IMG/VR virus record: IMGVR_UViG_2648501150_000028
Length of the DNA stretch: 6,008 nt
Reading direction: 5' to 3' (one strand)
Source: a virus
Lineage: Duplodnaviria; Heunggongvirae; Uroviricota; Caudoviricetes
In this document: positions 3,210 through 3,425 of the stretch, one piece after another
How positions within the stretch are numbered: the first letter of the stretch is position 1
Layout: every line of letters starts with the position of its first letter
Program-made: the position numbers and the translations under genes
Notes under the pieces: generated by a model
The model's input: the letters and a program-made list of their open reading frames with translations, nothing else
What the model was told of the DNA's origin: nothing
The model's database searches: none

Positions 3210-3425
3210 ATGGCTGACATACTCAGGGAAATCACCGCATGGATACTGATTCTTACTGGCCTGGCGACATGCCTCAGTGCGGGGGCAGCCCTGGCTGCCC
3301 TGCTGATGCACATAACAACACAGTGGTTATGGGAAAAGCTTAAAGCAGCATACAGCCTGAAAGAGCTGTCCGACGCTGTCCGGGCATGGAAACGGCAGAA
3401 AAATACCGGAGATACAGAACAATGA
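3210..3425 (+). CDS. small membrane protein (71 aa, one predicted transmembrane helix)
   Basis: RBS GGGAGG 3198-3203, ATG 3210. Hydrophobic segment ITAWILILTGLATCLSAGAALAALLM followed by a charged C-terminal tail. Stop TGA 3423-3425 overlaps the next start (ATGA). Confidence 0.6.
   Translation: MADILREITAWILILTGLATCLSAGAALAALLMHITTQWLWEKLKAAYSLKELSDAVRAWKRQKNTGDTEQ

Follow-up and report, generated by a model that had tools for sequence, protein, structure and literature searches.

A conserved, portable gene in the early operon of a Mu-like Escherichia coli prophage is predicted to encode a small single-pass inner-membrane protein

Positions 3210-3425 on the plus strand of a 6,008-nucleotide stretch from a Caudoviricetes virus (IMG/VR record IMGVR_UViG_2648501150_000028; the whole stretch is called the window here) were called as an open reading frame (ORF) of 71 codons plus a TGA stop, which begins with ATG and whose product is MADILREITAWILILTGLATCLSAGAALAALLMHITTQWLWEKLKAAYSLKELSDAVRAWKRQKNTGDTEQ. 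Its conservation indicates that this ORF is a genuine and well-conserved gene for a small protein, predicted to reside in the inner membrane. A preliminary description of this DNA had already placed a 71-residue protein here, and its coordinates proved right to the base. With regard to function, we consider it possible, with a probability of about 0.45, that the protein is a membrane-tethered, cytoplasm-facing modulator of host inner-membrane or envelope function during lytic growth.

Conservation of the small gene

Among 51 stop-free stretches of at least 60 amino acids (aa) in this window, four reach a Kyte-Doolittle (KD) value of 2.0 or more. As a hydrophobic ORF alone is therefore not beyond chance, the case for a real gene rests on conservation. 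The predicted protein matches phrog_3958 (PHROGs v4) from end to end (residues 1-71 against profile positions 1-71 of 71, E = 1.7e-41). In 28 of the 31 related IMG/VR viral contigs the 71-aa ORF is intact and is preceded by the same Shine-Dalgarno sequence, and the 18 nt upstream are kept in all 28 loci with the 71-aa allele. A divergent allele (loci L030-L032 and L034) has a GTG start with AGGAGG before it, and in L034 the C-terminus is altered as well. When the window allele was compared with the divergent allele, the ratio of nonsynonymous to synonymous substitution rates (dN/dS) amounted to 0.39 overall, to 0.52 for codons 1-36, which encode the helix, and to 0.11 for codons 37-71, which encode the tail. 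Judged from these ratios, the 71-aa gene is under purifying selection and its tail is the most conserved part. A protein identical to that of the window and an I12T variant of it occur on at least 1000 public contigs each, and the same holds for the divergent allele, which prophages of Salmonella Typhi and Citrobacter also carry. Of 5426 complete E. coli genomes, 621 contain the region, among them EC958 and IAI39, and the annotation of the gene always reads 'hypothetical protein'.

That the ORF is fortuitous or decaying, and thus non-functional, is highly improbable. Hydrophobic stop-free stretches are common enough in the window (the four of 51 mentioned above), and several broken alleles occur. 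However, its homologues are conserved down to about 30% identity with invariant residues, the Shine-Dalgarno sequence and the start are retained, the dN/dS of the tail is only 0.11, and intact alleles are found on thousands of contigs. Also, neither the antisense ORF of 333 aa (3083-4084, minus strand) nor the alternative-frame ORFs of 34 aa matched any family. A search of the window against Rfam at E values up to 1 revealed no RNA family, the only match being a spurious one to a miRNA.

A small family of predicted single-pass membrane proteins

A word-indexed search found near-identical E. coli proteins only. When 1.84 billion representatives were searched exhaustively with a HMMER profile, 17 hits were obtained; one of these, P0032, is a spurious repetitive protein of 1327 aa, and seven are genuine distant relatives of 58-69 aa (P0033-P0039). 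A second profile search added further relatives in Salmonella enterica, Klebsiella pneumoniae and Limnobaculum. By exhaustive search, then, the family is small and consists of proteins of 58-73 aa, all from Enterobacterales, and no chromosomal, non-prophage homologues were found in the profile searches. When P0036, P0035 and P0033 were compared by tblastn with 50,697 phage records, Escherichia phage PhiKM alone was found; by this search, none of the phages that have been studied possesses the gene. All 10 members scanned (alignment A3, which includes the window protein) match only phrog_3958, whose function is not annotated, and searches of Pfam, NCBIfam, PADLOC and PDB sequences gave no match for family members. 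By these comparisons phrog_3958 is the only family for which membership can be demonstrated.

The 19 distinct full-length members that were aligned share 29-40% identity between subgroups and, without exception, a common plan: a neutral or acidic N-terminus of 0-14 residues is followed by an uncharged helix of 23-35 residues and by a basic tail. KD values range from 1.95 to 2.64 across all 19 members, the N-terminal flanks contain 0-1 K/R and the tails 5-9 K/R. According to the positive-inside rule, this distribution predicts a topology with the N-terminus outside and the C-terminus inside (N-out/C-in). Six residues are invariant: W41, K43 and A56, and the three of the motif G17-x3-C21-x3-G25, whose spacing (i, i+4, i+8) puts them on the same side of the helix. 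W41 is located just before the tail, and the motifs AYSL and AVRA are found within the conserved tail.

For the 71-aa protein itself, the 19-residue KD maximum of 2.02 was obtained for residues 12-30, and the free energy (dG) summed on the biological scale over residues 12-32 was -1.16. The tail carries 7 K/R and 5 D/E after the uncharged span of residues 8-41 and has a hydrophobic moment of 0.54 over residues 46-63. AlphaFold2, provided with the family alignment, modelled a single continuous helix from residue 2 to residue 69 with a mean predicted local distance difference test (pLDDT) score of 80.8. The strongly hydrophobic, single-pass helix and the charged tail put forward in the preliminary description are thus borne out, the former as a prediction on which hydropathy, family-wide conservation and the single-helix model agree.

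A lipoprotein with C21 as the lipobox cysteine was also considered and rejected. The N-terminus is acidic or neutral and not a basic n-region, C21 is preceded by T, V or I where a lipobox would read L-[AS]-[GA]-C, and in all members the hydrophobic segment runs 15-20 residues beyond C21, whereas a lipobox cysteine stands at the end of this segment.

Position in the early operon of a Mu-like element

All genes of the window are on the plus strand. The small gene is preceded, in this order, by genes for a MuB-like AAA+ protein, a phrog_2041 protein, Gam (PF07352), a 64-aa protein with a CxxC…CxxC arrangement, a 90-aa protein and a 98-aa MazG-like protein; it is followed by the gene for a DUF2786/DUF7168 protein (3422-4105), two small ORFs, GemA and Mor. 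This position is the equivalent of the semi-essential region of Mu, which extends from gam to gemA. Positions 1-5502 of the window are 99% identical to phage PhiKM, which is classified as Bcepmuvirus. Sequence comparison therefore supports a location of the small gene within the early operon of a BcepMu/Mu-like transposable E. coli prophage. The early-operon setting given in the preliminary description agrees with this synteny with the MuB-like ATPase, Gam, GemA and Mor, all encoded on the plus strand.

The ATGA overlap with the downstream DUF2786 gene indicates that the 71-aa cistron is probably coupled to it in translation. A simple consensus scan of the plus strand between 1755 and 5393 found neither a sigma-70-like promoter nor an intrinsic terminator, although weak or non-canonical promoters could escape such a scan. 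As no promoter or terminator of its own was found and as the ATGA overlap is present, the small gene would be an internal, translationally coupled cistron of the early operon. The coordinates of the gene, of its features and of the adjoining landmarks are listed in Table 1.

Table 1. Positions in the window of the small gene, its features and adjoining landmarks.
Feature	Position	Strand	Basis or remark
Shine-Dalgarno sequence GGGAGG	3198..3203	+	sequence; 6 nt spacing to ATG
Coding sequence (CDS), 71-aa small predicted membrane protein, member of phrog_3958	3210..3425	+	
Long uncharged hydrophobic helix, residues 8-41; core transmembrane (TM) segment about residues 12-32	3231..3332	+	KD, dG
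Codon of G17	3258-3260	+	invariant column, family alignment
Codon of C21	3270-3272	+	invariant column, family alignment
Codon of G25	3282-3284	+	invariant column, family alignment
G5 run beside the 9-bp repeat; site of the frameshift allele	3281-3285	+	
9-bp tandem repeat GCNGCCCTG x2, encoding AAL-AAL within the TM helix	3284..3302	+	TRF
Basic amphipathic C-terminal tail, residues 42-71, predicted cytoplasmic	3333..3422	+	dN/dS, moment, charges, alignments
ATGA stop/start overlap with the DUF2786/DUF7168 gene (3422-4105)	3422..3425	+	sequence; PhiKM and RefSeq CDS starts
MazG-like nucleoside triphosphate (NTP) pyrophosphohydrolase, 98 aa, phrog_2245, upstream neighbour	2899..3195	+	stop codon 3193-3195
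Right-hand terminus of the Mu-like element, …CTCAAGTCTAATCA, about 160 bp after Mor	5489..5502	+	locus comparison

Position 5502 is the exact end of the element: 14 loci agree in sequence as far as this base, and at least nine different, unrelated flanks follow beyond it. The flank present in the window (5503-6008) is a replication (O) gene of lambdoid type that contains an iteron array; therefore, the transposable phage has inserted into another prophage. Within this O-gene fragment, a unit of 21-22 bp is repeated about 7.7 times at positions 5589-5759, and a super-repeat of 66 bp has 96% identity; these are the iterons expected at an ori, and the array yields long spurious repetitive ORFs on both strands.

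A 'mini-Mu' that carries early genes only, with host DNA after Mor, was also considered. It was set aside, as the PhiKM record has 34.7 kb with tail genes that abut the Mor end in the opposite orientation and as the IMG/VR contigs have 35-79 kb. Both observations fit the layout of BcepMu, with an early operon that is directed toward the end of the genome. In PhiKM (L001, PQ738613), the opposite-orientation tail-fibre genes abut the Mor end at 8503-9800, and a short ORF labelled 'Fe2+ ABC transporter permease' lies between. The GenBank record of PhiKM looks permuted or end-joined, and its product names Eha protein and late regulator C (for Mor) are doubtful.

Some further features of the operon were noted. 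The 64-aa ORF at 2426-2620 (phrog_3401) has the CxxC pairs C5/C8 and C39/C42 and resembles a small zinc-ribbon protein; PhiKM is annotated there with a minus-strand ORF instead (equivalent to window 2339-2560), probably a mis-call. The 68-aa ORF at 4322-4528 (phrog_6436, function not annotated) is moderately hydrophobic, with a KD maximum of 1.52, which is under the TM threshold. It overlaps positions 4360-4517, in place of which many related loci have unrelated sequence; this segment is a hot spot of mosaicism just upstream of GemA, and locus L022 carries an insertion of about 1.26 kb near window position 4205.

Portability, loss and allelic variation

Relatives of the small gene were encountered in several unrelated phage modules. 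In lambdoid early-left operons they are found beside Ead/Ea22, beside DUF551 or a dNTP pyrophosphohydrolase, and beside xis/int; one relative is located in a lambdoid nin region before NinG and another, in a Klebsiella Mu-like phage, directly upstream of GemA. P0037 and P0047, from Mu-like phages in Limnobaculum and in a metagenome, overlap the 3' end of a gene for a soluble Amidase_2 endolysin. The 60-aa member P0045 from a Salmonella lambdoid prophage occurs in identical form at L048 6001-6183 (Logan SRR36330218), in a region that resembles an integrative and conjugative element (ICE) with integrase, TraF_2, DUF2859 and Mrr. Because P0045 is also present in this ICE-like region, the family is not strictly phage-bound. 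Judged by these contexts, phrog_3958 is a portable accessory gene that stands apart from the core transposition, replication and lysis machinery.

Members of the family stand beside an all-alpha NTP/dNTP pyrophosphohydrolase in the window, where this is the MazG-like protein (2899-3195), and in L050 (5796-6482), where a PF04447 dATP/dGTP pyrophosphohydrolase and DUF551 are found. In L040 (569-1180) the neighbour is a related DUF551 protein. The adjacency to pyrophosphohydrolases may be a coincidence or may reflect a weak functional link.

The closest phage relatives, Klebsiella phage KP12 and Escherichia phage Phi06_2974 B, possess the MazG-like gene and lack the small gene, and in relatives without the small gene the MazG-like gene directly abuts the next gene. 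E. coli SCU-387 (L002 4061-4105) has an in-frame deletion of the small gene, equivalent to window 3186-3404, as a result of which the MazG-like protein runs on into the five final codons of the small gene. The fusion has 101 aa and ends in YTGDTEQ before the stop, and the ATGA coupling to the DUF2786 gene is kept. In KP12 and Phi06_2974 B the MazG-like protein, likewise of 98 aa, ends in YAAD or YAAE, in the way that the window protein ends in YTNE. As the MazG-like ends of these relatives without the gene resemble that of the window, the arrangement in SCU-387 is the derived state, which arose by secondary deletion. The reverse scenario, in which the small gene entered the MazG-like gene at its 3' end and borrowed the 'GDTEQ' codons from it, was rejected because of the YAAD/YAAE ends.

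Variation was found within the gene as well. A mosaic joint between the window lineage and the divergent-allele lineage lies inside the gene at about window position 3288. In L030-L034 an extra ORF of about 125 aa (MNRTEQTPQLTPEDAAQRIRVLEDENEYLRKRF…) is located between the MazG-like gene and the small gene and overlaps the GTG start of the latter (for example, L030 at about 2925-3305). The 9-bp repeat at 3284-3302 is the source of length alleles of 68, 71 and 74 aa, a 30-bp deletion leads to an allele of 61 aa, and a frameshift at the G5 run leads to another annotated product of 61 aa. The 9-bp repeat and the G5 run are thus slippage-prone sites at which the length of the TM segment is altered or the gene is broken. 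The alleles P0005, P0003, P0013 and P0017 were found on 25, 3, 4 and 37 contigs, respectively, compared to at least 1000 contigs for each intact 71-aa allele; the frameshift allele is present on 37 contigs. Two E. coli proteins, P0021 and P0022, are deletion fusions that join another N-terminal part, the MazG-like protein in P0021 and the 90-aa upstream protein in P0022, in frame to the C-terminal half of the small protein at '…AA|LLMHITT', and the GC-rich GCNGCC(CTG) stretch appears to act as a hot spot for recombination or deletion.

A proposed role at the host inner membrane

Because the gene is portable and dispensable, we consider an accessory modulator of the host envelope the most suitable reading of its function. 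The protein would be made only once the early operon of the prophage is derepressed; we infer such lytic-only expression from the lack of a promoter of its own in the scan, the presence of a Shine-Dalgarno sequence and the ATGA coupling to the next gene. Upon insertion, the short acidic N-terminus would be periplasmic, one long TM helix would cross the membrane, and a basic amphipathic helix of about 30 residues would face the cytoplasm. The G17-x3-C21-x3-G25 face might serve as a small-xxx-small packing surface that docks on further copies of the protein or on a host inner-membrane protein, and the conserved tail (W41, K43, AYSL, A56-V-R-A) might contact the cytoplasmic face of that partner or the inner leaflet. 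AcrZ, MgrB and MgtS are single-pass proteins of 30-70 aa that dock on a larger inner-membrane protein by means of their TM helix and a juxtamembrane segment, and the docking mechanism is the one proposed here for the 71-aa protein. In contrast, their sequences are unrelated to it, and phrog_3958 is confined to mobile elements.

Several observations weigh against a host-envelope modulator. No homology to a functionally characterized protein was found in Pfam, NCBIfam, PADLOC or PDB searches, and no partner can be named because no neighbouring gene is conserved across the contexts. The predictions of the TM segment and of its orientation derive from hydropathy scales and from counts of charged residues. 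The small-xxx-small motif would suit oligomers that form a pore just as it would suit docking on a host protein. The existence of disrupted and TM-shortened alleles implies that the gene is dispensable in the prophage state, and, the promoter scan being a crude sigma-70 consensus scan, the small gene may have a weak or non-canonical internal promoter.

A more specific form of this idea is that phrog_3958 is a portable effector which docks via G-x3-C-x3-G on one inner-membrane protein conserved in Enterobacterales or, alternatively, that it is a second, non-DUF2730 type of releasin; we regard this proposal as unlikely. The effector might recognize, for example, a divisome component, a DNA-entry channel or a membrane-bound immunity effector, and its cytoplasmic helix would switch the target off in lytic growth.

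Comparison with characterized phage systems

The Pfam, PADLOC, PDB and Mu-protein comparisons revealed no homology of the 71-aa protein to characterized exclusion, Kil, holin, releasin or toxin families. The nearest architectural analogue is gp25 of Mu. This 'releasin' (DUF2730, PF10805) has an N-terminal transmembrane domain (TMD), an N-out/C-in topology and a cytoplasmic helix (Chamblee et al., 2022; PMC9239132). The 71-aa protein is likewise a small protein of a Mu-like phage with an N-terminal TMD, a predicted N-out/C-in orientation, which charge bias suggests for 19 of 19 members, and a helical cytoplasmic tail, and some phrog_3958 members are located directly downstream of an endolysin gene. 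However, the similarity is confined to architecture. Ten members gave no hit to PF10805 at E values up to 1, hhalign probabilities were 0.05% against Mu gp25 and 2.8% against a gp25-like 80-aa protein of locus L049, and a hidden Markov model search against the small proteins of Mu (Kil, gp6, gp7, gp13-15, gp18-20 and gp23-26) gave no match. In addition, the window gene is an early-operon gene located between Gam and GemA, only P0037 and P0047 follow an endolysin gene, and the tail has about 30 aa, whereas gp25 is a late protein encoded near the endolysin with a tail of about 70 aa. By these comparisons, the 71-aa protein is not a member of the gp25 releasin family.

A role in lysis timing, in which a releasin-, holin- or antiholin-like factor aids or restrains endolysin release, would suit the architecture, which equals that of gp25 (PMC9239132), and the position of P0037 and P0047, which in Mu-like phages directly follow and overlap the Amidase_2 endolysin gene. 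We nevertheless consider such a role quite unlikely. Neither gp25 nor the DUF2730-like protein of L049 resembles the 71-aa protein in sequence or profile, and the window copy belongs to the early operon, where it precedes Mor by about 1.5 kb and is distant from any lysis gene. The lysis cassette of L049 comprises a holin-like protein, a spanin and an N-terminal TM coiled-coil protein, the same set as in L035, where the family member is located elsewhere; as both loci share this set, the Mu-like lysis cassette is complete without a family member. Also, the endolysin beside P0047 has no signal-arrest-release (SAR) or TM segment, and most contexts of the family are lambdoid early regions.

The same doubt applies to a holin. 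Holins are small proteins with at least one TMD and a charged C-terminus, and the pinholin of phage 21 has a glycine-zipper TMD. The 71-aa protein complies with these generic features in its size, its single TMD and its charged C-terminal tail, and G17-x3-C21-x3-G25 resembles the glycine-zipper oligomerization motifs. In contrast, holin genes are late genes in a lysis cassette next to endolysin or spanin, the window gene has an early-operon position, and no homology to the holin families of Pfam or PHROGs was detected.

Superinfection exclusion, that is, a block at the inner membrane of DNA entry by an incoming phage, was among the functions listed in the preliminary description. It might operate in the lysogen through leaky or unrecognized expression, in the way of HK97 gp15 and P22 SieA, or early in the lytic cycle, in the way of T4 Imm. 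HK97 gp15 provides the precedent of a small inner-membrane exclusion protein, encoded by an autonomous moron that is expressed from the repressed prophage (Cumby et al., 2012; reviewed in PMC3594210). Like gp15 (YebO-like), the 71-aa protein is small, accessory and predicted to be in the inner membrane, belongs to temperate phages of Enterobacteriaceae and shows a patchy, horizontal spread among unrelated phages. However, it has no homology to gp15/YebO, SieA or Imm; with regard to gp15/YebO there was no Pfam match, and the tblastn searches with family members against the 50,697 phage records gave PhiKM only. Whereas gp15 has its own transcription unit, the window gene is a coupled early-operon cistron for which the consensus scan found no promoter or terminator, and the phrog_3958 family has no chromosomal, non-prophage homologues. 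As that scan assigned the gene neither a promoter nor a terminator and as the gene is coupled within a repressor-controlled operon, exclusion of the moron type expressed in the lysogen is less likely than a lytic role. Furthermore, the tail is predicted to be cytoplasmic and only about 7 residues would be periplasmic, where an incoming tail arrives. Taken together, exclusion appears rather unlikely.

A peptide that kills the host or arrests its growth, either as a depolarizing pore or through a Kil-like block of cell division during host takeover, might oligomerize through the small-xxx-small face of its single hydrophobic helix. Such a peptide would be at home in the semi-essential early region, where Mu carries kil, and the frameshift, TM-deletion and fusion alleles in prophages look as if leaky expression were costly. 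Yet the ratio of intact to disrupted alleles exceeds 30 to 1, and the strongest constraint acts on the soluble tail and not on the helix, which argues that the protein makes a specific contact with another protein and does not damage membranes in a generic way. Comparisons with Mu Kil (PF26843) and with type I toxins revealed no similarity, and neither an antisense RNA nor an Rfam match was found. Type I toxins such as Hok, Ldr and TisB are encoded in stand-alone loci with an antisense RNA, whereas the window gene is embedded in a polycistronic operon. We therefore regard a toxic peptide as improbable.

An anti-defence factor that acts early in infection against a membrane-embedded immunity effector of the host or of a resident prophage is similarly improbable. 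The Mu semi-essential, lambdoid early-left and nin regions are homes of counter-defence genes, for example, gam and ral, and these are the accessory early regions in which the family is found. Gain, loss and mosaicism are typical of arms-race genes, and the family repeatedly adjoins genes for NTP/dNTP pyrophosphohydrolases. However, this support is positional only; there was no match to a known anti-defence family, no PADLOC hit and no co-varying defence system was found.

Implications

The 71-aa gene is an ordinary kind of uncharacterized phage accessory gene, and its description is a solid improvement of annotation and not a surprise. Superinfection exclusion, interference with division or the envelope and a toxic peptide, the functions listed in the preliminary description, were a reasonable prior; the portability of the gene, which is absent from close relatives and present in several unrelated phage modules, is a refinement beyond what a single sequence had allowed. 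The gene is common, as its region occurs in about 11% of the complete E. coli genomes, including the ST131 strain EC958, and everywhere it is annotated as 'hypothetical'. Small membrane proteins of phages, a source of functions in exclusion, lysis control and host takeover, have received too little study, and what had been a bare ORF is now tractable, with its family, six invariant residues, a predicted topology and its portability defined. Should the protein have a specific partner in the host, both the conserved tail and the G-x3-C-x3-G face would be mutational handles. If the proposal of a docking effector were true, phrog_3958 would constitute a mechanistically defined new class of takeover, exclusion or anti-defence proteins common to Mu-like phages, lambdoid phages and ICEs.

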